NCBI GenBank assembly: GCA_045863395.1
Contig: BTVJ01000082.1
Coordinates: forward strand, 1-33,603
Source of the DNA: Myxococcales bacterium
Lineage (GTDB): Bacteria > Myxococcota_A > UBA9042 > JABWCM01 > BTVJ01
Reading direction: 5' to 3'
Length of the DNA: 33,603 nt
The notes under the pieces were generated by a model. That model did no database searches. It was given only the letters and a program-made list of their open reading frames with translations, and was not told the DNA's origin. Made by a program: the position numbers and the translations under genes. Shown in pieces: positions 13,949 to 29,187 of the stretch. Numbering within the stretch: position 1 is the stretch's first letter; each line of letters starts with the position of its first letter.

Positions 13949-14764
13949 TCAGCGGGGTGCGCCCCCCCGTGTCACGGTTGACACGGCGGCCTGGGATGGC
14001 GCCACGCGCCTCCGGGCCGTGACCTCGGCCGCGTGGAGGGCCCGGCGCTCGATGGGGCTCAGCCCGGGCGTCCCTCGCAGCGCCAGGGCCCAGGCATCCA
14101 GATCGGTGGCCGATCGGGCGGCGTCCAGCGCCGCCAGCAGCGTCTGGCAGGTCTTGCCAAGGCCTCCGAGGGCGGTCTGGACCGGGGCAAAGGACAGGCG
14201 GTGCTCCTCGCAGGGCCCATGGGCCATCAGCGCCGCGCGGTGCGCAGGGGTCGGGTAGCCCTTGTGCTTTGCGAAGCCGTAGACCGGGAAGCGCGCGTCC
14301 AGGGCGTCCATGAGGTGGTCCCGGTGCACCTTGGCGAGCACCGAGGCCGCCGCGATGCTCAGCTCTTGGGCGTCACCCCCGACGACGCGCGTCTCGGGGC
14401 AGGGGAGGCCGGAGACGGTGCGGCCGTCCACCAGGGCGTGCTGCGGGGGCATCGCCAGGCCCTCCACCGCGCGGCGCATGGCCAGCAGGCCGGCGTGGTA
14501 GATGTTGATCTGATCGATCTCGGCTCGGCTGGCCTGCGCGACGCACCACGCCACGGCAGCGTCCTTGATGGGCTGGCACAGGGCCGCCCGTTGCCTCGGG
14601 GTGAGCTTCTTCGAGTCGTCGACGCCCGGGAGCGAGCAGTGTGGCGGGAGGATCACCGCCGCGGCGACCACGGGGCCGGCGAGGGGGCCGATGCCGGCCT
14701 CGTCCACGCCGGCCACCCGAAGGAGGCCCCGGGCCCACAGAGCCAACTCATGCTTCCGGTCCAT
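13949..14764 (-). CDS. rnhB: Ribonuclease HII with a C-terminal extension (271 aa)
   Basis: AGVDEAG(I)GPLAGPVVAAAVIL, DDSKKL, LVDG, GD..ELSIAAASVLAKVHRD, YGFAKHKGYPT, HRLSF. Confidence 0.95.
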   Translation of the reverse strand: MDRKHELALWARGLLRVAGVDEAGIGPLAGPVVAAAVILPPHCSLPGVDDSKKLTPRQRAALCQPIKDAAVAWCVAQASRAEIDQINIYHAGLLAMRRAVEGLAMPPQHALVDGRTVSGLPCPETRVVGGDAQELSIAAASVLAKVHRDHLMDALDARFPVYGFAKHKGYPTPAHRAALMAHGPCEEHRLSFAPVQTALGGLGKTCQTLLAALDAARSATDLDAWALALRGTPGLSPIERRALHAAEVTARRRVAPSQAAVSTVTRGGAPR

Positions 14765-14936
14765 GGGTGCACCGTCCTTGGTCGGAGCGTCGGGAGCGCC
14801 CTTCGTACTCCACCTCCATCCTTCGATCAACCGTCCTCGGAGGGGACGCCGACGGGACCTCGGGGACGACCGCGCCGCTTGTATGATCGGGGCGCTCCGG
14901 GTATACACGCCGGTTGTTCTGCTCCGAGGTGGTTCC

Positions 14937-17558
14937 ATGTGCGATGTACGACGACCCTTGCCCCTCGCCTTGTTGCTGCTGGCCCAGCTCGGGCTCGCCT
15001 CGTGCGCCAAGGACGGTGGAGCGCCCCCTCCACCCCCTCCGCCCCGTGGGGCGGCGCCCGCGCCCGACACGGGCGTGCACCCGGACGCGGGGCCTGCGGA
15101 GCCGCCGAGCCCCCTCGCCGACGCGCGCGACGTGCTGAAGGTCTACGACTTTGGGGATGAGACCCTGTCCGCGCTCGGCAGCCTGCGTGCCTATGCGGTG
15201 GAGTTCCCGCGCGCCAGGGACGCCGCCGAGGCTGCCCGCCTCGCCGCGAAGACCGAGCTCGACGTGCTGGTGCGGGCGCTCCACACGAAAGACGCGGAGC
15301 TCCTGGCAGGGCTCGCCGGGCGCTTGGAGTCGCGGGCCACCGAGCCCGGACCCGCCGCACAGGCCGTGGCGGCCGACACCAAGCGCCTGTTTGCCGCCCT
15401 GGGCTGGCCGGAGAACGCAGACGAGGCCCTCGCCGCCGCGGCCGAGGAGGCCATCGCCGTCGCCGACGCCGTCGCGGCGGTGACGGCCGGCGAGGGGAGC
15501 GTCGATGTGGACAAGCTCTCGTCCATTCTTGCCGGCACCGGGGCGTATTCCGGTGCAGCGCGCTACTTCGTGGCGGGAAAGCTCGTCGATCTCTTGGAGC
15601 CGCTCCGTGGACAGCGCCAGGACGTCGTCTCGCAGGCGTTCGCGACCCCTGTCGCCCGGCTGCTCTGTGCCTCGTGCGAGCAGGCGGCGCGCGATGAGGG
15701 GGGGGACGTCACCAAGAGTCTGCTTGCCGGGGAGCCCGGGGTGGCCTGTGCCGCCATCCGCGACAAGACCGCCGGGCTTGGCGGGCAGGAGGCCTGGGCG
15801 TTGCTGGCCTCGGAGTGCTCGCCCGCCGACTGGGGCCTTCAATCCCGTGACCAGCTCATCCAGATGGCCGGGGCGAACTTCCTCCCCATGCGCGCCTATG
15901 GCCTCCTCTCCTTGGTCGCTGGGGCTCCCCCCCTCGGCAATGATCCCATGGGGCGCCTGATCCCGCAGCTCGTGGATCCGGCGGCGGGCAACAGCGAGCA
16001 CCCACCGGTCGCCTTGGGTCTCGCCGTGCCGTATGTGGCGCCCGCCGAGGACGCGAAGGACTCCCTGGTCGTGTCGGCCGCACCTCACGGCGGTCCCGGC
16101 TGGATGCTGTCTCCCCTCGAGACGCTCATCGTGGACTCCGCGGTGCGGACGGCCCAGCGCCCCGTCGTCGTGCTGTCCGAGGGCAAGGTGGCGCTGGAGG
16201 GCGGTGGTGACTCGCTCTGGCCAGGGCGCGAGGTGGTGACCCTGGAGGCGCTGCTTGCCCCGCCGCCCGAGGTGCCTGCGGGCGAGGCGCCTGCCGGGGA
16301 GCCGGCGGTGCACCCCGGGAAGGCAGCGCTGGCCAAGGGGCTGCAGGACCTCACCGCCTCTGCCAGCGAGCTCGCAGGACGCCACGCGGGGCTGGCCCCG
16401 ACGGTCTCTCCTCCGCCGGAGGGTGGCACGTCCACCCCTCGCAGGGCTGCGTGGGTCGCTGCCCACCGTGACACCGACGCCGCCGCCCTCTCTGCCGTGG
16501 TCGCCGGGATGGTGGAGGCTGGCTACGGTCGTGCCTGGTGGCTGACTGGCCCGGGGGCCCACGCGTATGTGCCGACGGCCATCGGCCCCTTGACGTCACT
16601 GCCCGTGCGCGCGGTGGACCTCCGCTACAAGCGCCCGACGCTCGTGGTGTTGACACCTGAAGGGGCCGACGTCTACCCGCCGGCGGGCTCGCTCGGTTCG
16701 GCGCGCGGGGCGCGACCGGGCGCGCCGACGGCGCTCCCGAAGGGCGCCCAGCCCTGGTACCGCGGCGAGGAGCTCTTCAAGGTCTCAGTGGCGCTGCCCA
16801 AGAAGGGGACGGGCGCCGCCCGTATCGTGGACACCGCGCGCTTCCTTGCGGGCGTGGCCGATGCGGGGAACGTGGTGCTGCTGGACGGGGTGGCCGGTGT
16901 CCCCGCGAGCCGCCTCGTGGAGGTCGCGGCGCTCCTCGGCACGGCGCCAGGGCCCGACTGGGATACGGCTCCGCGGGTCTTCAAGGGCCTCGTGTGTGCA
17001 CCCTCCGCGAGCCCGCCGCAGGCGGACCCCGAGGCGCCGGCCCCCGGCGGCCCGGACGCGGGCCCGCCGGAGGAGGGCGCCCGGGAAGGGCTGGACCCGA
17101 AGGCCGATTCGGGCTCCGCCTCGGGCACCTTTGGACCCTGTCCGACCCAGGCCGTGGTCATGTTTCCGGGCGTCGACGTGCCGAGCGCCGGCAACTTGAC
17201 GAAGGAGCCCGTGAAGAAGGAGGTGGAGAAGGTGCCGCCCAAGGTCGAGGTCAAGGAGGAGGCGTCGGCCGCGTTCTGCAACAAGGGCGACATCCAGCGC
17301 GTGATGGGCGGGCGCTCCGGGGCGTTCAAGTTCTGCTACGAGCGCGAGCTGCAGCAGAACCCCGATCTGGAGGGGCGCGTCGTCCTCCGGTTCAACATCG
17401 ACCTGTCGGGCGACCCCCAGGCCATCGCCATCGCCTCGTCCACGCTGAAGAGCGAGGCGGTCCACGAGTGCCTGAAGGCCAACGTGAAGAAGCTGACGTT
17501 CAACAAGCCCGACGGCGGCGTCTGCGCAGTCCAGTGGCCGCTCGTCTTCAAGAACTGA
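14937..17558 (+). CDS. Large lipoprotein with a C-terminal AgmX/PglI (TonB C-terminal-like) domain (873 aa)
   Basis: GAGGTGG RBS; lipobox LGLASC; C-terminus IQRVM...FKFCYERELQQNPDLEGRVVLRFNI...SSTL....VHECL......TF.KP.GG...VQWPLVF. Confidence 0.8.
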   Translation: MCDVRRPLPLALLLLAQLGLASCAKDGGAPPPPPPPRGAAPAPDTGVHPDAGPAEPPSPLADARDVLKVYDFGDETLSALGSLRAYAVEFPRARDAAEAARLAAKTELDVLVRALHTKDAELLAGLAGRLESRATEPGPAAQAVAADTKRLFAALGWPENADEALAAAAEEAIAVADAVAAVTAGEGSVDVDKLSSILAGTGAYSGAARYFVAGKLVDLLEPLRGQRQDVVSQAFATPVARLLCASCEQAARDEGGDVTKSLLAGEPGVACAAIRDKTAGLGGQEAWALLASECSPADWGLQSRDQLIQMAGANFLPMRAYGLLSLVAGAPPLGNDPMGRLIPQLVDPAAGNSEHPPVALGLAVPYVAPAEDAKDSLVVSAAPHGGPGWMLSPLETLIVDSAVRTAQRPVVVLSEGKVALEGGGDSLWPGREVVTLEALLAPPPEVPAGEAPAGEPAVHPGKAALAKGLQDLTASASELAGRHAGLAPTVSPPPEGGTSTPRRAAWVAAHRDTDAAALSAVVAGMVEAGYGRAWWLTGPGAHAYVPTAIGPLTSLPVRAVDLRYKRPTLVVLTPEGADVYPPAGSLGSARGARPGAPTALPKGAQPWYRGEELFKVSVALPKKGTGAARIVDTARFLAGVADAGNVVLLDGVAGVPASRLVEVAALLGTAPGPDWDTAPRVFKGLVCAPSASPPQADPEAPAPGGPDAGPPEEGAREGLDPKADSGSASGTFGPCPTQAVVMFPGVDVPSAGNLTKEPVKKEVEKVPPKVEVKEEASAAFCNKGDIQRVMGGRSGAFKFCYERELQQNPDLEGRVVLRFNIDLSGDPQAIAIASSTLKSEAVHECLKANVKKLTFNKPDGGVCAVQWPLVFKN

Positions 17559-19162: not shown

Positions 19163-19948
19163 ATGGCCGAGATGCTGCGGTACGAGGTGGACGCCCAGGG
19201 CGTCGCCCTGCTGACCATCGACCGTCCGGAGGCGCTCAACGCCATCAACGCGCAGGTGCTCGACGAGCTGCGGGAGGCGCTCGTCGACTTCGGGCGCGAC
19301 TCACGGGCGCGGGTGCTCGTCCTGACAGGCGCTGGCCCCAAGGCCTTCGTCGCGGGCGCCGACATCAAGGCCATGGCGCGGTGGGAGCTCGAGGAAGCGC
19401 ACGCATTCTCGCGCAGAGGGCAGGAGGTCTTCCGGTTGCTGGAGGAGGGCGACAAGCCCACCCTGGCAGCGGTCAACGGCTTCGCGCTGGGCGGAGGCTG
19501 CGAGCTGGCCCTGGCCTGCGACATGATCTTCGCGTCCGAGAAGGCGCGCTTCGGGCAGCCCGAGGTCAAGCTCGGCGTGATCCCGGGCTTTGGCGGGACC
19601 CAGCGCCTCGCGCGCCTCATCGGGCCTGGTCGCGCCAGCTATCTGATCCTCACGGGCGAGACCATCACCGCGCAGGAGGCCCTGGCCATGGGCCTCGTCG
19701 TGCGCCTGTTCCCTCCCGACGCCCTGCTCGACGGCGTGCTCGGCATCGCGCGCGCCATGGCGACCCAGTGCGGTCCCCTCGCGATGGCGGCGTCGCGGGA
19801 GGTCCTGCGGGAGGGGCTCCAGGGGCCGCTCCAGCGTGGCCTGGAGCTGGAGGCGCGGCGCTTTGCGGCCATGTTCTCCACCTCCGAGCAGCAGGAGGGC
19901 ATGGCCGCGTTCATCGAGAAGCGTCCGGCGAGATTTCACCAGCCTTGA
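19163..19948 (+). CDS. Enoyl-CoA hydratase (crotonase family)
   Basis: AFVAGADI, AVNGFALGGGCELALACD, FGQPEVKLGVIPGFGGTQRL (both catalytic Glu present). Confidence 0.95.
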   Translation: MAEMLRYEVDAQGVALLTIDRPEALNAINAQVLDELREALVDFGRDSRARVLVLTGAGPKAFVAGADIKAMARWELEEAHAFSRRGQEVFRLLEEGDKPTLAAVNGFALGGGCELALACDMIFASEKARFGQPEVKLGVIPGFGGTQRLARLIGPGRASYLILTGETITAQEALAMGLVVRLFPPDALLDGVLGIARAMATQCGPLAMAASREVLREGLQGPLQRGLELEARRFAAMFSTSEQQEGMAAFIEKRPARFHQP

Positions 19949-19958
19949 GAGGGCACCC

Positions 19959-21121
<1,163 letters not shown>

Positions 21122-21125
<4 letters not shown>

Positions 21126-22240
21126 GCGCCGTTCAGGGCTTCGACCCCCGGGCGCTGCACGCGGAGGAGCGCGCGAGGCGTGTCGCTGAGGAGATCGCGC
21201 CGCGCGCCGCAGAGGTGGATCGGGAGGGCAGGGTGCCCCTGGAGACGCTCCGGGCGCTCGCCGAGGCTGGGCTCATGGGCGTCAACGTGCCCGCGGCCTA
21301 CGGCGGCCTGGAGGCGACCACCGTCGGGTACTCGCTGGCCATGCAGCAGGTGGCGAAGGCGGACGCCTCCGTGTCCGTGGCCATGGCGGTCACCAACATG
21401 GTCGGCGAGATCCTGTGTCGGTTCGGGTCGGAGGTGCAGCGCGCGCGCTACGTGCCGCGGCTGACCAGCGGCGAGGCGGTCGCCGGCAGCTTCGCGCTCA
21501 GCGAGGCAGGCTCGGGGACGGACGCGGCGTCGTTGAGAACCACGGCGGTGCGGCGCGGGGACCACTACGTGCTGAACGGCAGCAAGATGTGGATCACGAG
21601 CGGCGACATCGCCGGCGTGATCGTCGTCTATGCGCGCACGGACGCGAGCCACAAGCAGCGCGGCATCTCGGCGTTCATCGTCGAGCCGACGTTTCCTGGC
21701 TTCCACGTCGGGGCCCACGAGCAGAAGATGGGGCTCCACGGGTCGAGCACCGTGGGCCTGACCTTCGAGGACTGCGTGGTGCCCGCCGAGAACCTGCTCG
21801 CCGAGGAGGGCCAGGGCTTCACCATCGCCATGGCGGCGCTGGATGGGGGGCGCATAGGCATCGGGTCGCAGGCCGTGGGCATCGCGACCGGGGCGCTGGA
21901 GGCGGCGGCAAGAGCTGGGGCTCCGAGCGGCGCGGCGCTGGAGGCCATCGCGGACATGGCGACCCGCCTCGACGCGGCGCGGCTGCTGGTGCTGCGGGCG
22001 GCCCACCTCAAGGACCAGGGCCGGCGCTTCACGCTGGAGGCGTCCATGGCCAAGCTCTTTGCGACCGAGTCCGCTCTGCGCATCTGCGAGGACGCGCTCC
22101 GGGTGATTGGGGCGGGGGCGATGTCGCGGGACCTCCCGGTGGAGCGGTTGCTCCGGGACGTCCGCGTGACGAGCATCTACGAGGGGACCAGCGAGGTTCA
22201 GCGCATCGTCATCGCGCGCGAGGTGCTGCGCGGGGCGTGA
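21122..22240 (+). CDS. Acyl-CoA dehydrogenase 2 (catalytic motifs intact, cross-subunit FAD motifs lost)
   Basis: GTGA overlap; [21 protein letters not shown] and YEGTSEVQ present; the RxxFG segment and QIHGGxG are absent. Confidence 0.9.
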
Positions 22241-22271
22241 ACACCGGTCGCATGGCGACCCAGGGGTAGAC

Positions 22272-22679
22272 ATGGCGACTCCCAAGGCACGAATCCTCAT
22301 CGGAAAGCCCGGCCTCGACGGCCACGACCGGGGCGCGAAGGTGGTCGCGCGCATGTTGCGCGACGCCGGCTACGAGGTCATCTACACCGGGCTCCACCAG
22401 ACGCCGGAGATGATCGTCGCCGCAGCCATCCAGGAGGACGTCGACGTGGTGGGCCTGTCCATCATGAGCGGCGCCCACAACTTCCTGGTGCCAGAGGTGC
22501 TCCGCCTGCTCGCAGACCAGGGAGCGGGCGACGTGCCCGTGTTCGTCGGCGGCATCATCCCGCCGGATGATGCTGCTGCCCTCAAGGCGGCCGGCGTGGC
22601 GGAGATCTTCACCCCGGGCGCGTCCATGGCGGAGATCGTGGGCGCGGTGGAGCGCATCGTCGCCGGAAGGGCGGAGTGA
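22272..22679 (+). CDS. Stand-alone cobalamin-binding subunit of an acyl-CoA mutase (methylmalonyl/isobutyryl-CoA mutase small subunit)
   Basis: [10 protein letters not shown] (DxHxxG), [19 protein letters not shown]. Confidence 0.93.
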
Positions 22680-23758
22680 TGAGCGAGCTGGCGCTGATTC
22701 AGCAGACCGTCCGAGACTTCGGTGCACGCGAAGTTGTGCCCTACGCGGCGCGGTGGGATGCCGAGGGACGGGTTCCCGCGGCCGTGCTCGCGGGGCTGGC
22801 GGAGCTGGGTCTCCTGGGGATGGAGGTGCCCGACGGTCTCGGCGGTTCCGGCCTCGAGGCCTCGGACGGCGCGGCGGTCATCGAGGAGCTGGCGGCGTGC
22901 GACGGGTCGCTTGCGCGCATCGTGTCGGTGCACAACGCGCTGGCGCTCGCGCACCTGCTGGCGGGGTCGGCGGAGCAGCGCGCCACGCTGGTGCCACCCC
23001 TGGCCTCGGGGGAGCGCCTCGGAGCGTGGGTGTCGGGCGGTGGTGTGGTCGCCCGCAGGGTGGGCGACGCCTGGGAGCTCACCGGCGTCGAGCCGCTCGT
23101 CCCGGTGGGGGCTCTCGCCCACGACTGCGTGGTGGTGGCCAGCACGGAGGGTGGCCCGACCGCCTTCCTGGTGGACACGGCCACGGCGGGCTGGCGTGCG
23201 CGCGCGGTGGACACCCACGGGCTTCGGGCGGCGGGGACGGCGGAGGTCACGCTGCAGGGGGTCGTCGCGCCGGATGCGCGGCGAATCGGTGGCATCGGGG
23301 CGGGCGTTCGCGACGCAGAGCGGGTGCTCCGTGGGGCGCACCTCCAGGTGGCGGCGATGGCCGTGGGCATCGCCCGGGGTGCGCTGGCGGCGGCGGCGCG
23401 CTATGCCTCGGAGCGCGTCCAGTTCGGCAAGCCCATCGCCGAGTTCCAGATGATCCAGTGGAAGATCGCGGACGCGGCGACCTCTGTGGACGCCGCGCGG
23501 CTGCTCACCGAGCGGGCGGCGACCCTGGCGACGGCGGGGAGGCCGTTCGGCCAGGAGGCCCTCATGGCTCGTGCCTTTGCCACGCGGGTGGCGCCGCAGG
23601 TGTGCAGCGACGCGATCCAGATCCACGGGGGCTACGGCTACACGACGGACTTTCCGGTGGAGAGGGCCTGGCGCGACGCGCGCGCGTGCTGCTTCGCGGA
23701 GGGGACCTGCGACGAGGTCGGGCTGGCGGTGGCGAGGGGAGTGCTCGCGGCGAGCTGA
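22679..23758 (+). CDS. Acyl-CoA dehydrogenase 3 (degenerate N-terminal flavin motifs; probable partner subunit)
   Basis: TGATG overlap (alternative GTG at 22676); ERVQFGKPIAEFQ and QIHGGYGY intact; the SEPxxGSD and GxKxWIT motifs are replaced. Confidence 0.88.
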   Translation: MSELALIQQTVRDFGAREVVPYAARWDAEGRVPAAVLAGLAELGLLGMEVPDGLGGSGLEASDGAAVIEELAACDGSLARIVSVHNALALAHLLAGSAEQRATLVPPLASGERLGAWVSGGGVVARRVGDAWELTGVEPLVPVGALAHDCVVVASTEGGPTAFLVDTATAGWRARAVDTHGLRAAGTAEVTLQGVVAPDARRIGGIGAGVRDAERVLRGAHLQVAAMAVGIARGALAAAARYASERVQFGKPIAEFQMIQWKIADAATSVDAARLLTERAATLATAGRPFGQEALMARAFATRVAPQVCSDAIQIHGGYGYTTDFPVERAWRDARACCFAEGTCDEVGLAVARGVLAAS

Positions 23759-23774
23759 GACAGATTGGAGAAGG

Positions 23775-24050
23775 TCAGTCGCCGTCACCGGTGGCGTCCT
23801 GGCCGCCGGCATCCTTGGCGCCGTAGGGCGTCTCCCCGCTCTTGGTGCAGGCGCCATCCGCGCACGCCTGCCCGTAGCCGCAGATCTTCGTCACGGCCCA
23901 CCCCCGCCCATCCGACGTACACTTCACGACGTTGCCGCCCTTGCAGGTGCTCGGCCCCCCTGGCACGCACACCCGCGCGACGACCGTCTCGACGGGCTCG
24001 CCGCAGCCGGCGAGCAGGAGCGTGAGGGCCAGCCAACGTGCGGTGGTCAC
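23775..24050 (-). CDS. Small Cys-rich lipoprotein (91 aa)
   Basis: GTGA overlap with the upstream gene; MTTARWLALTLLLAGC lipobox; six further Cys. Confidence 0.7.
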   Translation of the reverse strand: MTTARWLALTLLLAGCGEPVETVVARVCVPGGPSTCKGGNVVKCTSDGRGWAVTKICGYGQACADGACTKSGETPYGAKDAGGQDATGDGD

Positions 24051-25159
24051 AGGTCGACTGCCTCCGAGCAGTATCCGAAGCCCCCGTAGATGGGGTTGCA
24101 CTTCACGTCGAAGCTCTTGCACTTGGGGTTGTTGGTGTTCATCGAGGCGTCGCACACGGTGAAGCACTTGCCCGCGCCCTGGCACGTCAGGCCCGGCTGG
24201 CAGTCGTTGGAGGTGGTGCAGTTCTCGTACTTCTCCTTCTTGCCCGCCGACAGGCAGATCCACTTGTCGTCGCTGGGGTAGCAGCCGGCACCCACCGGGC
24301 AGTCGCTGCCGAGTGGGTCGCAGGTGGGGAACTGGACGTCCTCGGTGCAGATGCCGGTCTTCGTGTCCTTGTCCTTCTGCTCGAACTTGCCGGCGCCGCA
24401 CAGGCTCGAGCAGGCAAAGGAGGCGTCAGCTCCCGGGGCAGTGCTGCACAGCCGGGCGCAACCCTTGACGATGCCGTAGTTGAGGCACACGAGCCCAGGT
24501 GCGCAGTCGTTGGCGTTGCCGTTGCAGTTGTCCCCCAGGCCGTTTGAACCCTCCTTGAGGCAGGTCATCGCCGAACCGCTCAGGTAGCAGGCCTGGCCCT
24601 CGGGGCAGGAGCCGGCCACGAAGGCGTCGCAGGGCGGGGCGGCCTCGCCGCAGAACTTGAAGTGGGTGGACCCGGTCACGGTGATGTTGCAGACCCCGCC
24701 CTTGGGGCAGTCCCCGTCGGTCTTGCAGGGAGCGATGCAGGTGGCGGCGGCGGCCCCCTCGGCCTTGCCGCAGACGCCCGCGGTGCACTCGCTGGAGTCG
24801 TCGCACTCCGCGCCGGGCTCTACGTCCCCGGTGGTGACGCACTTCCAGCCGCCGCCGAGGAGGACGCAGGACTGGCCGGCTCCGCAGCCCGTGTGGCAGA
24901 GCGCGTTGCACTCGAGGCCGGAGGGCACGACGCACTTGGGATCGAGGATATCTGCGCCCGGGCTCGTCACGTCCGAGGGGTGGCCGCCCGCGGTGTCGGT
25001 CGGGGCGGCCGTGTCGGAGAGGGCGGAGTCGGCTGCAGGCCCGGTGTCGGCCGCGGTGGACCCGCTGTCGGCCGCCCCCGTCCCCCCGCTCGACTCGCAA
25101 GCGCCCGATAGCCCGGACAGGGCCACCAGCATCGGTATCATGAAGGATCGCGTGACCAT
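24047..25159 (-). CDS. Cys-rich lipoprotein with repeated disulfide modules (370 aa)
   Basis: Lipobox LSGAC; Asp/Ser/Thr/Ala linker; recurring C-D-x4/5-C-P-x-G-x-x-C-Y and C-x-x-x-x-DC-x-PGL-x-C units. Confidence 0.8.
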   Translation of the reverse strand: MVTRSFMIPMLVALSGLSGACESSGGTGAADSGSTAADTGPAADSALSDTAAPTDTAGGHPSDVTSPGADILDPKCVVPSGLECNALCHTGCGAGQSCVLLGGGWKCVTTGDVEPGAECDDSSECTAGVCGKAEGAAAATCIAPCKTDGDCPKGGVCNITVTGSTHFKFCGEAAPPCDAFVAGSCPEGQACYLSGSAMTCLKEGSNGLGDNCNGNANDCAPGLVCLNYGIVKGCARLCSTAPGADASFACSSLCGAGKFEQKDKDTKTGICTEDVQFPTCDPLGSDCPVGAGCYPSDDKWICLSAGKKEKYENCTTSNDCQPGLTCQGAGKCFTVCDASMNTNNPKCKSFDVKCNPIYGGFGYCSEAVDL

Positions 25160-25201
25160 GGAGCTGCTCCCGTCGTTGCCAGGCGCCGATGTGCGCCCCG
25201 G

Positions 25202-25229
25202 AGTATAGCAGGGGCACCCCCGCGCGCAA
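25202..25229 (-). promoter_or_regulatory. Putative sigma70 promoter of the Cys-rich lipoprotein pair
   Basis: TTGCGC (25229-25224), 16 nt spacer, TATACT (25207-25202) with extended -10 TGn. Confidence 0.55.
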
Positions 25230-25346
25230 GGTGACGGCTGGTGCCGCCGTTCGCTCCGTCACAGGCGCGAGCTGCTCCTCGGGCCATGAGACGTGCAACT
25301 GGTCGAGCATGGTGACGGTGCAGGGGATTGTGCGGCTACGGTGCAC

Positions 25347-25427
25347 AAAAAAAGCGACGGCGCGTGAACTCGACTGGTCTCGTGGCGGGGGGAACCGCGA
25401 GTCAGCTTACCGAATTCACGCGCCGTC
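25347..25427 (-). terminator. Intrinsic terminator-like 3' hairpin with U-tract
   Basis: Perfect 13-bp inverted repeat at 25356-25368 / 25415-25427, followed on the minus strand by GC and then T7 (25353-25347). Confidence 0.65.
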
Positions 25428-25484
25428 AGGTGTGACCCGCAGGCCCGCGGCGGGGGGGAACCGCGAACCCGAAGCGTTGGTCAC
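25347..25484 (-). ncRNA. Candidate small RNA with two C-rich-loop hairpins
   Basis: Intergenic; two hairpins share UCGCGGUUCCCCCC(C)GCC; G-U pairs work only on the minus strand; upstream promoter and terminal U7. Confidence 0.65.
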
Positions 25485-25491
25485 GACGGCC

Positions 25492-25519
25492 ATCCTACTC
25501 CGATTGTGCGGCCGGGCAA
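25492..25519 (-). promoter_or_regulatory. Putative sigma70 promoter of the candidate sRNA
   Basis: TTGCCC (25519-25514), 16 nt spacer, TAGGAT (25497-25492), AT-rich upstream; the predicted start (~25484) coincides with the base of the first stem. Confidence 0.55.
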
Positions 25520-25555
25520 GATGATCAATTTGGGACATCGGTTACATTGTTGGCG

Positions 25556-28228
25556 TCATCGGTCGGACCACGTGCACACGGGCGGTGGGGCGGACAGGTC
25601 GCCCTTTCGGCGAAGCAGCAGGATCCGCTGTGCCCTGAAGTGGAGCAGCGCCGGGTCATCGAAGGTCCTGTCGAGTGCGAAGTCGCGCACGGGCGGCATC
25701 CGCGATAGGGACTCGGGGGCGAAGAGAGATCGCGGGGTGCTCACGAGGATCGCGAGCTTCGTGTCGCAGGCGCGCCGGAAGAGGCCCTCGACACGTGAGA
25801 TGCCCGTCTTGAAGCGCTTGGAGTTGGTGTCCACCTCGTTGGCGGCGATGGCCCGGCCGGCGAGCAGGGCGATGAGGGGCGTCGTCGTGGACGCACCGAG
25901 GATGGTCGCGTCGGGCGGGGTCGTGTCGCGGATGTGCGCGGCGATGGCCTCCGCGGTCGAGAACCACCGCTTCTTGCTCCACAGGTAGTGCGCCGGGCCC
26001 GGCTGCAGCTCGCCTCGGACCCTGTGATCGCGCCAGAACAGCAGGTGGACGACGCCGGACAGGCTCGGCAGCACGGGCGGCTCGATCCACCGGAAGTCGA
26101 CGCGGGTGCCGGCGGCCTCCTGCTCCTCCGGCCAGGCCTTGGCGTTGGCGCGGTGTCGGAGTGGGGACGCTGCGAGGGTCAGGGCGAGGACGGCGACGCC
26201 GAGCCAGGCGCGGCCGGCGGGCAGGCCGTCGCGGAGGCGGGCGAGGCCGTCGGTGACCAGAGAGGCGGAGGCGGTTAGGGTGAACGCAGCGAGAGGCGCC
26301 AGCGCCGCGAAGGGCAGCACGAAGTAGAAGTCGTAGAGCTCCTTGAACATCGAGAGCTGGAGGAAGTAGCCGAAGGCCACGAGGTACAAGAGGCGGGCGG
26401 CGCCCTCGGGGGTCCCGTCCCAGAGCGTGCGGGGATCGAGGAGGCGGAGCAGGCGCCGGGAGCGAGGGCCCCCTGCCGCAGGCGTGAGGACGCGCGCGAG
26501 CAGCGGCAGGGGCGCCAGCACGGCGGTCCAGAACAGGGAGCCGTGGTAGTAGAGGCTCTCCTGGAGCTCCTTCCCGCGCAGGAACACGCCGAAGTTGTGG
26601 ATTACGGCGCCGATGGGGCCGCCCGGGGAGCCGAAGAGGGGGAGCTGATCCGGGTCCTTCGCCGCCTTGAGAAGGTGGTAGCGGTACACGCCGTCCACGT
26701 AGCCCTGGCCGCCGATGGCCCAGAAGGTGAGGTTGATCGCGCCGAAGACCACGGCGAAGCCAGCGGCGAAGCGCAGCGTGGGGCGCAGGCCGCGGAAGGG
26801 CAGGGTGGCGAGGAGAACGGCGAAGCCGGCCATGGCGTAGAAGCCCGTGGACGCTGCCAGGCCGAACAGGGCGCCACCCAGCAGGAGCCGGTCGGTGAGG
26901 GCCGCCCAGGTGCCGCCCGCGCTGAACAGGAGCGTCAGGTTCACGCCCGTCAGGTTGGTGCTCGCCTTGAGCAGCTCGCTGGCGAACAGGAAGGCGCCGA
27001 GGGTCAGGAGGGCGGCGAAGGCGCCAAATCGCCGGCGAGCGAGGGCCCAGGCGAAGGCGCCGGCGCCAGCGGCGGCCAGCGGGGCGATGGACTTTGCGAG
27101 GAGGAGGGTGAACCCGAAGACCTTGAAGAGGGCCGCGGGGACCAGCAGGTGGACCGGAGGGTGTGCGAAGAAGAAGTCGCGGTAGGGGAGCTGCCCCTCC
27201 GCGAGGAGGTGCGCCATATAGAAGTAGATGTTCTCGTCGCCGTCGGCGGCGCGCAGGCCGTGGGTCTTGAGCAGGGCGTAGAGGGCAAAGGTTGTCGCGA
27301 CGGCGAGGGCCTCGGCGGCGCGGGCGGTGGTGACGAGTTGCGGTGGCGAGGTGGCCAGCGCGTGTGCGGTCGTGGCCACGGTGATGGCGGCGGCAAGGGC
27401 AGCGGCGACGGCCGCCCAGGGGGCGCCGGTCACCGCGAGCCACAGGACCGGGTGCAGCAGCGTCACGACTCCCAGGGCGCGGTTCAGCGGGGGACGTGGC
27501 CGTAGCGCGAGCGGAACGAGCGCGAGGGCGGCGACCAGCGCGAGCCCGAGCAGGGACGTTGGCAGAGGGGACGTGGGGTCGGTCATCGCCAGCACGGGGA
27601 TGGTCAGCGTGCCTCCGGGCCACTGTGGGGAGACGAGGAGGCCCGCGACGAGAAGCGCGGAGCCAGCGGCCACCACGCGGGCCGCCAGAGATGAGGGCGC
27701 GTCGGCGAGCGAGAGGAGCGCGGCGCCGAGGGCCGTCATGAGCAGCGGCGCCGGGACTCCGGCGACGCCCCGATCCCAGGGGTCGAGGAGGGTCGACACC
27801 CCGGACTGCGACACCCCGTAGAGGGACCACATCGCGAGCGTGGCGACGACTCCTCTGGTCAGGTCGAGGCGCGGGGTCGTGGAGCGGCGTGTAAAGGATG
27901 TGCACGCCAGCAGGAGAGTCAGCAGGGCTGAGAACCATGCCAGACCGGGAGAGATGGGATTCCCGACCGCGGCGCCGCCCCCTAGCGCTCCAATGAAGGG
28001 TCCCGAGCCCCACGGGAGGAGGAGGGCGGCGACTGCGAGGGACGCTGCGGCCAGGTGCGCGCGCCTGAGCAGGGCGGGGCGCTCCTTGGCGGGGAGGGAC
28101 GGAGCGGGCCCCGTGGAGGTCGCCGGGGTGTCAGGTGGCCGTGCCGCATCTGACGGTACACCCGGGCTCGTCTGTGGCTCGGGTCCCGGAGCGTCGGTCC
28201 GGCGCTCCTTGGGGCGCTTGCGGCTCAC
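25556..28228 (-). CDS. Polytopic membrane GT-C fold glycosyltransferase (ArnT/PMT-like) with an extra N-terminal membrane domain (890 aa)
   Basis: GTGA overlap with meaB; many TM segments; GDENIYFYMAHLLAEGQLPYRDFFFAHPP loop motif typical of GT-C enzymes. Confidence 0.75.
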   Translation of the reverse strand: MSRKRPKERRTDAPGPEPQTSPGVPSDAARPPDTPATSTGPAPSLPAKERPALLRRAHLAAASLAVAALLLPWGSGPFIGALGGGAAVGNPISPGLAWFSALLTLLLACTSFTRRSTTPRLDLTRGVVATLAMWSLYGVSQSGVSTLLDPWDRGVAGVPAPLLMTALGAALLSLADAPSSLAARVVAAGSALLVAGLLVSPQWPGGTLTIPVLAMTDPTSPLPTSLLGLALVAALALVPLALRPRPPLNRALGVVTLLHPVLWLAVTGAPWAAVAAALAAAITVATTAHALATSPPQLVTTARAAEALAVATTFALYALLKTHGLRAADGDENIYFYMAHLLAEGQLPYRDFFFAHPPVHLLVPAALFKVFGFTLLLAKSIAPLAAAGAGAFAWALARRRFGAFAALLTLGAFLFASELLKASTNLTGVNLTLLFSAGGTWAALTDRLLLGGALFGLAASTGFYAMAGFAVLLATLPFRGLRPTLRFAAGFAVVFGAINLTFWAIGGQGYVDGVYRYHLLKAAKDPDQLPLFGSPGGPIGAVIHNFGVFLRGKELQESLYYHGSLFWTAVLAPLPLLARVLTPAAGGPRSRRLLRLLDPRTLWDGTPEGAARLLYLVAFGYFLQLSMFKELYDFYFVLPFAALAPLAAFTLTASASLVTDGLARLRDGLPAGRAWLGVAVLALTLAASPLRHRANAKAWPEEQEAAGTRVDFRWIEPPVLPSLSGVVHLLFWRDHRVRGELQPGPAHYLWSKKRWFSTAEAIAAHIRDTTPPDATILGASTTTPLIALLAGRAIAANEVDTNSKRFKTGISRVEGLFRRACDTKLAILVSTPRSLFAPESLSRMPPVRDFALDRTFDDPALLHFRAQRILLLRRKGDLSAPPPVCTWSDR

Positions 28229-29187
28229 GGCGTGCGCAGGAGGGCTCCGAGGACCTCGTCGCCCACGCTGTAGGGGTCGGTCTCCCGAGCGATGATCTGG
28301 TCGATGTACGTGTCGCGGCGCCCGTCCGTGGCGAGCCATCCGTCGATGGCGCGGACCGCCAGGTCTCGCAGCACCTGGTCGAGCACGTGGCGCTCCCGCA
28401 GCCGCCGCCTCCCGCGGGTGCCTGCGTCCGTGGTCAAGAAGGCGCGGTGCTCGGCGATCTTCTCCGCGACGTCCGCGATACCCTCCCCGCGCACCGCGAC
28501 GGCCTTGACGATGGGAGGGAACCAAGGCGGCATCTCCGACATCATGGCCTGCATCTGGCGCAGGTCGCGCAGCACCCGGTCGGCGCCGTCGTGGTCCGCC
28601 TTGTTGACGACGAAGATGTCCGCGATCTCGAGGATGCCCGCCTTGATGGCCTGGATGTCGTCGCCGAGGCCCGGCACCACGACCACCACGCACGTGTCGG
28701 CGAGGCGCACGATGTCGATCTCGTCCTGCCCGACGCCGACCGTCTCCACGATGATGGCGTCGTACCCCATGGCGTCGAGCACGGACACCACGTCGTGAGT
28801 GGAGCGGGACAGCCCGCCCAGCGCGCCGCGCGTGGCCAGGGAGCGGATGAACACCCCCGGGTCCGTGAAGTGATCGACCATGCGGATGCGGTCGCCGAGG
28901 ATGGCTCCGCCGGAGAAGGGGCTCGACGGGTCGACGGCAACGACGCCCACGCGGAGCCCCTCGCTGCGGTAGTGGCGCACGAGCTGGTTGACGAGCGTGC
29001 TCTTGCCGCTACCCGGGTTGCCGGTCAGCCCCAGGACGAAGGCGCGGCCCGTGTGGGGATAGAGGCGCTTGAGGGCCTCGGTGGCGCCCGCGGAGCGGTC
29101 GTCGAGCAGGCGCATGAGGCGCGCGCCGGAGCGCACGTCGCCCGCGAGGATGGGCTCCACCAGGGCCAGGGGATCTCGGGTGCGCAT
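28225..29187 (-). CDS. meaB: Methylmalonyl-CoA mutase-associated GTPase MeaB/ArgK
   Basis: GLTGNPGSGKST, AVDPSSPFSGGAILGDRIRM, RGALGGLS, ETVGVGQDE, KAGILEIAD, NKAD. Confidence 0.95.
   Translation of the reverse strand: MRTRDPLALVEPILAGDVRSGARLMRLLDDRSAGATEALKRLYPHTGRAFVLGLTGNPGSGKSTLVNQLVRHYRSEGLRVGVVAVDPSSPFSGGAILGDRIRMVDHFTDPGVFIRSLATRGALGGLSRSTHDVVSVLDAMGYDAIIVETVGVGQDEIDIVRLADTCVVVVVPGLGDDIQAIKAGILEIADIFVVNKADHDGADRVLRDLRQMQAMMSEMPPWFPPIVKAVAVRGEGIADVAEKIAEHRAFLTTDAGTRGRRRLRERHVLDQVLRDLAVRAIDGWLATDGRRDTYIDQIIARETDPYSVGDEVLGALLRTP

Follow-up and report, generated by a model that had tools for sequence, protein, structure and literature searches.

The gene-free gap at 25347–25519 of the window (the whole analysed stretch of 33,603 nucleotides) very probably encodes a real, uncatalogued small RNA (sRNA) gene on the minus strand. 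The element combined a predicted sigma-70-type promoter, two hairpins (A and B) with nearly identical poly-C loops, and a U7 tail, and very probably belonged, as the twin form, to a small group of poly-C-loop hairpin RNAs with sigma-70 promoters in the order. The proposal of a sequence-only reading that the element was an sRNA gene of its own was well supported by its single copy, its tRNA-style promoter, the separate ancestral promoter of the downstream gene, and a design with two further occurrences in the genome and one in an order-mate.

The host genome was composed of 8.77 Mb with 71% G+C, and was the sole member of its family among the genomes compared. The assembly contained no 16S gene. 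The Myxococcota affiliation was indicated by a myxo_SS_tail domain over the cut-off and by the look-alike clusters of the downstream lipoprotein. This AgmX/PglI C-terminal (myxo_SS_tail) domain was located in a protein encoded at 14565–17558 on the plus strand of the window. Elsewhere in the host genome (G000), ARAGORN predicted a tRNA-SeC gene near 15654 of contig C66.

Overall structure of the twin-hairpin element

The features of the element and its flanks were as follows.

25519–25514, minus: predicted −35 hexamer TTGCCC of a sigma-70-type promoter
25497–25492, minus: predicted −10 hexamer TAGGAT, with a 16-nt spacer to the −35 hexamer; predicted +1 at 25486–25484
25432–25484, minus: hairpin A, with an outer 6-bp stem, an inner 11-bp stem with G-U pairs, and the tip GGU[U-C7]GCC
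25484–25479 / 25437–25432, minus: outer stem of hairpin A
25452–25459, minus: loop A, U+C7, unpaired probability ~1.0; putative seed
25355–25428, minus: hairpin B, with internal loops and the tip GGU[U-C6/7]GCC; also the terminator stem
25427–25415 / 25368–25356, minus: 13-bp perfect base of hairpin B, extended to ~17 bp
25387–25393, minus: loop B, U+C6 in the assembly; C7 in the contigs of 4/4 RNA runs examined
25353–25347, minus: U7 tail, predicted 3′ end
25556–27832, minus: upstream gene of a polytopic membrane protein without a family hit (its start was set by a crude gene caller)
24047–25159, minus: downstream gene of a predicted Cys-rich lipoprotein (without a family hit; its look-alike clusters are mostly from Myxococcota)
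25229–25202, minus: separate lipoprotein promoter TTGCGC-17-TATACT, outside the RNA

The promoter, the stems of both hairpins, the U7 tail, and the second promoter were all located where the sequence-only reading had placed them. The minus strand of the element folded with −77.5 kcal/mol and a z of −4.71 (0/200 shuffles as good), whereas the plus strand gave a z of −0.48 (59/200 shuffles as good), and only the minus strand stood out against its shuffles. The orientation, which had been argued from four G-U pairs, was thereby upheld, although the minus-strand fold contained eight such pairs. When folded separately, hairpins A and B gave z values of −3.25 and −7.29, respectively, and were each equalled by 0/300 shuffles.

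Loops A and B were assigned as U+C7 and U+C6, respectively, because a U-G pair closes both. The inner stem of hairpin A, described before as 10 bp, was present and comprised 11 bp with G-U pairs. The 13-bp base of hairpin B was indeed perfect, but its inner stem carried one C-A mismatch. The proposed duplication of the loop motif was found in both tips, which shared the form GGU[U-Cn]GCC, although the exact repeat covered 14 nt in the assembly. This tip pattern occurred twice in the window, against 0.03 occurrences expected. In the RNA runs X19, X20, X17, and X11, loop B gained one base by a G inserted behind 25386. The U7 tail was the sole one of 24 intergenic hairpin-plus-T6 sites with a C5+ loop on its hairpin. 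Both BLAST and a covariance model of the element found a single copy in its own genome. The short ORFs across it showed, by eye, no Shine-Dalgarno-like sequence.

Promoter of the element

A generic promoter and terminator scanner called neither the promoter nor the terminator of the element; therefore, the promoter was called on evidence specific to this genome. In the same genome, a tRNA-Met gene was preceded by TTGACC-17-TAGGAT, with an identical −10 hexamer, and a tRNA-Thr gene by TTGCGC-16-TATAGT, with an identical 16-nt spacer. The pattern TTG-N19..21-TA-NNN-T had a genome-wide frequency of 6.4e-5 per base and preceded 7/57 tRNA/tmRNA calls. No sigma-54 signature was found near the element, and the single GG-N10-GC within 25340–25640 on the minus strand was located at 25603, inside the upstream gene.

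Two further observations concerned the promoter region. A 12-bp imperfect hairpin overlapped the promoter (25523–25491, minus) without reaching significance (z −1.85, 19/300 shuffles), and would be the first stem if the RNA start lay further upstream. The sequence TGTAA-N6-TCCCA (25546–25531, minus) was located within an AT-rich patch, centred ~53 nt before the predicted start. It resembles a CRP/FNR-family site, at an unusual distance from the start.

Sibling C-loop hairpin genes

Within the host genome, 3 of 1460 intergenic promoter-like sites led into a hairpin with a C7+ loop, and none into one with a G6+ loop. One of the three sites was the window element; the others were single-hairpin genes on contigs C8 and C62. 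In each case the stem began 6–7 nt after the −10 box. The promoter pattern of this survey was composed after all three had been seen; therefore, it demonstrates their rarity and is not a blind prediction. A further single-hairpin element was found in G002, an order-mate of the host.

C8, hairpin ~93086–93032, locus 93123–93026 (L231:1427-1524), minus: single-hairpin gene of the host genome
C62, hairpin ~11967–11910, locus 12002–11904 (L230:1405-1503), minus: single-hairpin gene of the host genome
G002, contig C137, L254:1473-1572, minus: single-hairpin element

Both host loci were located between convergent genes. The C8 gene had a TTGACT promoter and a U-C8 loop without a U tail, and the C62 gene had a TTGACG promoter, a 64-nt hairpin, a C-U-C7 loop, and a short U tail. 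Their hairpins were the two most stable among the 692 U-C6+ tip hairpins of the genome; the fold z values were −9.7 (C8) and −8.2 (C62). Rfam gave 0 matches at E 2 at either locus. The two loci are probably sRNA genes.

The G002 element was composed of TTGACA-18-CAACAT followed by one hairpin with a GGU-U-C8-GCC tip and a U6 tail. Its fold z was −2.67, and none of the other C-run sites folded from G001 and G002 (30 in all, out of ~90 matches) was as stable. It scored 4.6 bits with the covariance model of the whole twin element. The G002 element was located behind a carboxyl-transferase and UspA-like gene pair, and was not syntenic with the host, because the own-genome uspA orthologue has no hairpin gene behind it. 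It is likely homologous to the window element. The other order-mate, G001 (92% complete), showed no such hairpin among the sites folded. Among the five hairpins (A, B, G002, C8, and C62), the tip was kept while the stems were freely variable. Three of the four elements had a TTGAC −35 box that placed +1 at the stem base.

Neighbouring genes and synteny

The upstream membrane protein gene ended ~70 nt before the element on the same strand. The 'GT-C' label once attached to this gene had no Pfam or NCBIfam support. The downstream lipoprotein gene had its own promoter, as had been proposed, and in the relative G012 a TTGCGC-type promoter was found at the same place. In that genome the same two flanking genes were ~80 nt apart with this promoter between them and without the element. 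In G001 and G002, the lipoprotein gene was directly behind meaB, again without the element. Since relatives without the element keep the lipoprotein promoter, the promoter at 25229–25202 is read as ancestral and the element as gained upstream of it. Where orthologues of the upstream gene were found, in four relatives, no such structure was present at their ends. Homologues of the lipoprotein (P0002–P0004 and P0008) showed 54–77% identity where measured, and their genes were located on contigs of 4.8–178 kb.

The locus was flanked by genes for an enoyl-CoA hydratase, three acyl-CoA dehydrogenases, and a methylmalonyl-CoA mutase C-terminal domain, and by meaB (19163–23758, plus; 28225–29187, minus). 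The G002 element was likewise located near a carboxyl-transferase gene.

RNA-library contigs

Six RNA runs held part of the window, and four of them (X11, X17, X19, and X20, from three studies) were examined. The element was covered in 4/4 runs by contigs, which carry no end, strand, or level information and possibly include DNA. The element contigs stopped at 25508 in X11 and 25463 in X17 without loose ends, and at 25465–25466 in X20 and X19 with loose ends. The contigs of the upstream gene were separate from those of the element in 4/4 runs, which is a weak hint from RNA runs only. In X11, X19, and X20, a contig ran from the element across the U7 tail into the lipoprotein gene; therefore, read-through occurred or DNA was present. 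In X17, the lipoprotein contig ended at 25176, apart from the element contig.

A more distant strain, which differed at 76 of 1414 sites in a neighbouring stretch, showed 0 differing letters in 80 in a contig over 25387–25466, among the differences listed, which may hint at purifying selection on this sequence. A 96-nt contig of X19 (25387–25466) appeared to join the 66-nt loop-to-loop unit to itself as a cycle, which would reflect template switching or a tandem copy. In one X20 contig, from a strain ~95% identical, a 30-nt loose end behind 25465 replaced the 5′ arm of hairpin A; by eye, the new sequence could still pair with the 3′ arm.

Searches for relatives

No relevant Rfam match was obtained with the whole window at gathering thresholds or with 25150–25650 at E 10, and the element was thus outside the known Rfam families, as had been suspected. 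BLAST against 60 relatives gave only chance matches of 18–35 nt, and the whole-element covariance model matched 0/106 other genomes of the class. Class-level sequence patterns gave no twin; in one of these searches, 30 of the 41 listed matches were folded. One class pattern and one phylum pattern required exactly C7 and were blind to the C8-looped G002 element. Two phylum patterns matched 2 and 1 of 401 genomes, with neither a hairpin nor a twin among them. The latter, a tip-plus-tail pattern, gave five control matches for comparison.

The twin-loop pattern gave four matches in genome contigs, and these were rejected as unrelated tandem or REP-like repeats. In metagenomes it matched at least 119 stretches, mostly homopolymer noise, with no homologue among the matches listed. 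Plasmids gave a single 23-nt match and phages none. The viral contigs gave 17 and 14 pattern matches and no twin. One of the 14 (L468:301-332, minus) was a hairpin with a GGU[U-C7]GCC tip followed by U6; therefore, the tip alone is not diagnostic and can arise without shared descent.

Two other kinds of repeated structure were noticed. At L455 (minus) and L456 (plus) of G191, TTGAC boxes were followed by non-coding sequences of >150 nt that were similar to each other, shared C-rich blocks, and were not of the hairpin-tip type. L025:520-579 and L024:2501-2582, from two MAGs, contained tandem REP-like units with base pairing between a G-run and a GCGGTTCCCCCC run.

Comparison with Pxr and other C-rich sRNAs

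Pxr (Rfam RF01812) is an sRNA found in Myxococcus and further Cystobacterineae that blocks fruiting-body development and occurs in processed long and short forms (PMC5684412; PMC5568312). It is transcribed from a sigma-54 promoter directly downstream of the NtrC-like pxrR/pxrK genes (PMC5684412; PMC5568312). Mutation or deletion of the stem-loop SL1 loop abolishes its function with its level unaffected (PMC5684412). Its direct targets are described as still uncharacterised, with 25 predicted (bioRxiv 10.1101/2024.05.04.592516).

The sequence-only reading had linked the element loosely to Pxr and had not noted how alike the tips are: the Rfam consensus SL1 tip, GGU[U-C7]ACC, is one base apart from the GGU[U-C7]GCC of the element, which conforms to the SL1 tip form GGU[U-C7]RCC. 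The same GGTTCCCCCC as in the SL1 tip is carried by a primer listed in PMC5568312. As in Pxr, one unpaired base directly precedes the GG in hairpin B and in the G002 element, and the window RNA and Pxr are both U-tailed and multi-hairpin in an Hfq-less myxobacterial setting. The other features of Pxr were missing. The element has two C-loops where Pxr has one, and its second C-loop is located on the terminator stem. Compared by eye, it lacks the short SL2 and a separate SL3 terminator with its conserved 8-bp segment. Its promoter is sigma-70-type instead of sigma-54, and its upstream genes are a membrane protein gene and meaB, with no NtrC-like gene. The RF01812 model gave no match at the locus (gathering 80 bits); its cut-off was reached in 0/151, 0/5, and 0/2 genomes searched, so these searches were without a positive control. 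Weak full-length Pxr matches in G077, G166, and G183 were rejected as a tRNA and terminators. An identity of the element with Pxr is thus ruled out by the model score and by the missing SL2/SL3, sigma-54 promoter, and pxrR neighbour. Pxr is regarded as a recent invention of the Cystobacterineae.

A close design analogue absent from the sequence-only reading is the 6C RNA of Actinobacteria (RF01066), which likewise has two stem-loops with at least six C each and a U tail in a high-GC host without Hfq (PMC6486639). In mycobacteria, the 6C loops pair with G-rich ribosome-binding sites (RBSs) without chaperones (PMC6486639). The element differs by its phylum (Myxococcota) and its much longer stems. 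RF01066 gave no match at the locus (gathering 47 bits), and its only match in the host genome, elsewhere, was of 20.9 bits (E 7.9). The cuckoo RNAs of Alphaproteobacteria share adjacent hairpins, one repeated C-rich loop on variable stems, and a hairpin number that differs between members, as here; however, their loop motif is the anti-SD-like CCUCCUCCC (PMC4615179), whereas that of the element is an unbroken C7, and the element had no Rfam match. LhrC of Listeria is a multi-copy sRNA whose redundant CU-rich sites pair with mRNA with Hfq not needed, but its host is a low-GC Gram-positive, its motif is another one, and it is under a known two-component control (PMC4132741). The element belongs to none of the 6C, cuckoo, and LhrC families. 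A full-text literature search, with subscription journals mostly outside its scope, found no paper on C-rich hairpin small RNAs of Myxococcota or myxobacteria.

Candidate targets and protein partners

Pairing with G-rich RBSs, which had been suggested from the known C-loop sRNAs, did not show up as G-run enrichment at the RBS or as a conserved target, and such pairing would stay an analogy. In the host genome, G6 runs were flat around start codons, whereas GGAG peaked there. Among 316 orthologue pairs of G000 and G002, for which 1.06 of the ~2.7 Mb of G002 was used, G5+ runs were near both starts in 2 pairs against 1.19 expected, which is chance level, and G6+ runs in 0 against 0.19. The target scan covered 1356 of 5921 called genes, namely those with a G5 within −50 to +100. 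The top RBS-overlapping candidates among these 1356 genes, ranked with no control, included an SMC-like ATPase gene and, judged from their N-termini, putative mraY, murB, sufS, and sufU genes. A G6-A stretch in the early coding region of the lipoprotein gene could pair with the loops and ranked 133/1356.

No Hfq was found in the host genome, with the control positive in 5/14 genomes. KhpA/B-type KH proteins over the cut-off were found in 3/3 genomes of the order and in 6/14 controls.

Proposed function and alternative explanations

The element is proposed to be a stand-alone sRNA gene of ~139 nt, which would be transcribed by the housekeeping sigma-70 polymerase from ~25485 to the U7 tail. Its two very stable stems would hold two near-identical U-C7 loops fully exposed, and these would most likely seed pairing in trans with G-rich single-stranded mRNA stretches without Hfq, like mycobacterial 6C. 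The second loop may provide redundancy or two-point binding. A trans-acting, Hfq-independent role in the manner of the 6C, cuckoo, or LhrC RNAs is considered reasonably probable by analogy; loop-seeded pairing is favoured because of the analogy and because exposed, repeated loops are kept while the stems vary freely. A single hairpin-terminator sRNA, like those elsewhere in the genome and in the order-mate, was probably duplicated to give the twin form, and the element would have been gained in the host lineage upstream of the ancestral lipoprotein promoter.

The same kept tip on varying stems would also suit a real sRNA that acts as a protein decoy, in which the identical loops titrate a pyrimidine- or poly-C-binding protein of the KH-domain or cold-shock type. 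CsrB and RsmZ are protein-titrating RNAs and serve as the model for this reading. No conserved G-rich target was found, KhpA/B-type KH proteins occur in 3/3 genomes of the order, and the direct targets of Pxr are described as uncharacterised (bioRxiv 10.1101/2024.05.04.592516), all of which would fit a decoy. However, two loops are few for a sponge, KhpA/B is so widespread among the controls (6/14) that its presence says little, and the loops of 6C and LhrC pair with mRNA (PMC6486639; PMC4132741); a decoy is therefore held to be unlikely. Less likely again is that the element is a mere structured 3′ end, as terminator region or 3′-UTR, of the upstream membrane protein gene, with a promoter match by chance. 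It would agree with this that the element lies ~70 nt behind a same-strand stop codon, that the C8, C62, and G002 elements likewise follow same-strand genes, that the generic scanner missed the promoter, and that a weak hairpin overlaps it (z −1.85); C-rich stem-loops as alternative terminators are an idea mentioned in PMC6486639. Against it, the TTGAC −35 box places +1 at the stem base in 3/4 elements, the orthologues of the upstream gene in four relatives end without such a structure, and, weakly, the contigs of the upstream gene were separate in 4/4 runs.

A leader, attenuator, or other cis-acting RNA that controls the lipoprotein gene would explain why the X11, X19, and X20 contigs join the two and why the early coding region has a G6-A stretch that could pair with the loops. 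This is very unlikely, as the lipoprotein gene has its own promoter, also in relatives without the element, the lowest-energy fold keeps the hairpins separate from the 187-nt spacer and forms no anti-terminator, the X17 lipoprotein contig ends at 25176 apart from that of the element, and the G6 site ranks 133/1356. A MITE or REP-like repeat, to which a lineage-specific insertion with a 13-bp perfect inverted repeat might point, is largely refuted and barely credible: the element is single-copy by BLAST and covariance model, its strand asymmetry is strong, and its promoter and U tail are where expected. A high-copy REP-like occurrence, which the sequence-only reading had named as a possible refutation, was thus not found.

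Implications for Myxococcota sRNAs

Pxr is the main functionally studied myxobacterial sRNA in the literature found, and its direct targets are unconfirmed. Among C-rich-loop sRNAs, the element adds sigma-70 drive, a loop on the terminator stem, and a near-exact Pxr tip. There is a small chance that the GGU[U-C7/8]RCC tip and that of Pxr SL1 go back to one ancient functional module of Myxococcota. If so, Pxr would represent a single sigma-54-driven branch within a set of poly-C-loop RNAs that spans the phylum, and these RNAs would have been duplicated, moved, and re-promotered while all reading the same partner, either G-rich RNA or a poly-C-binding protein. The twin sigma-70 element would then be a deep-branching witness of this set and a handle on the direct target of Pxr. 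Should the tips be alike by convergence, the annotation of uncultured Myxococcota still gains a small group of uncatalogued sRNAs in the element and its siblings. The presence of another RNA with a Pxr-like tip and a promoter of its own in a distant, non-model lineage, alongside single-hairpin sibling genes, suggests a general use of poly-C loops for regulation in these high-GC bacteria without Hfq.
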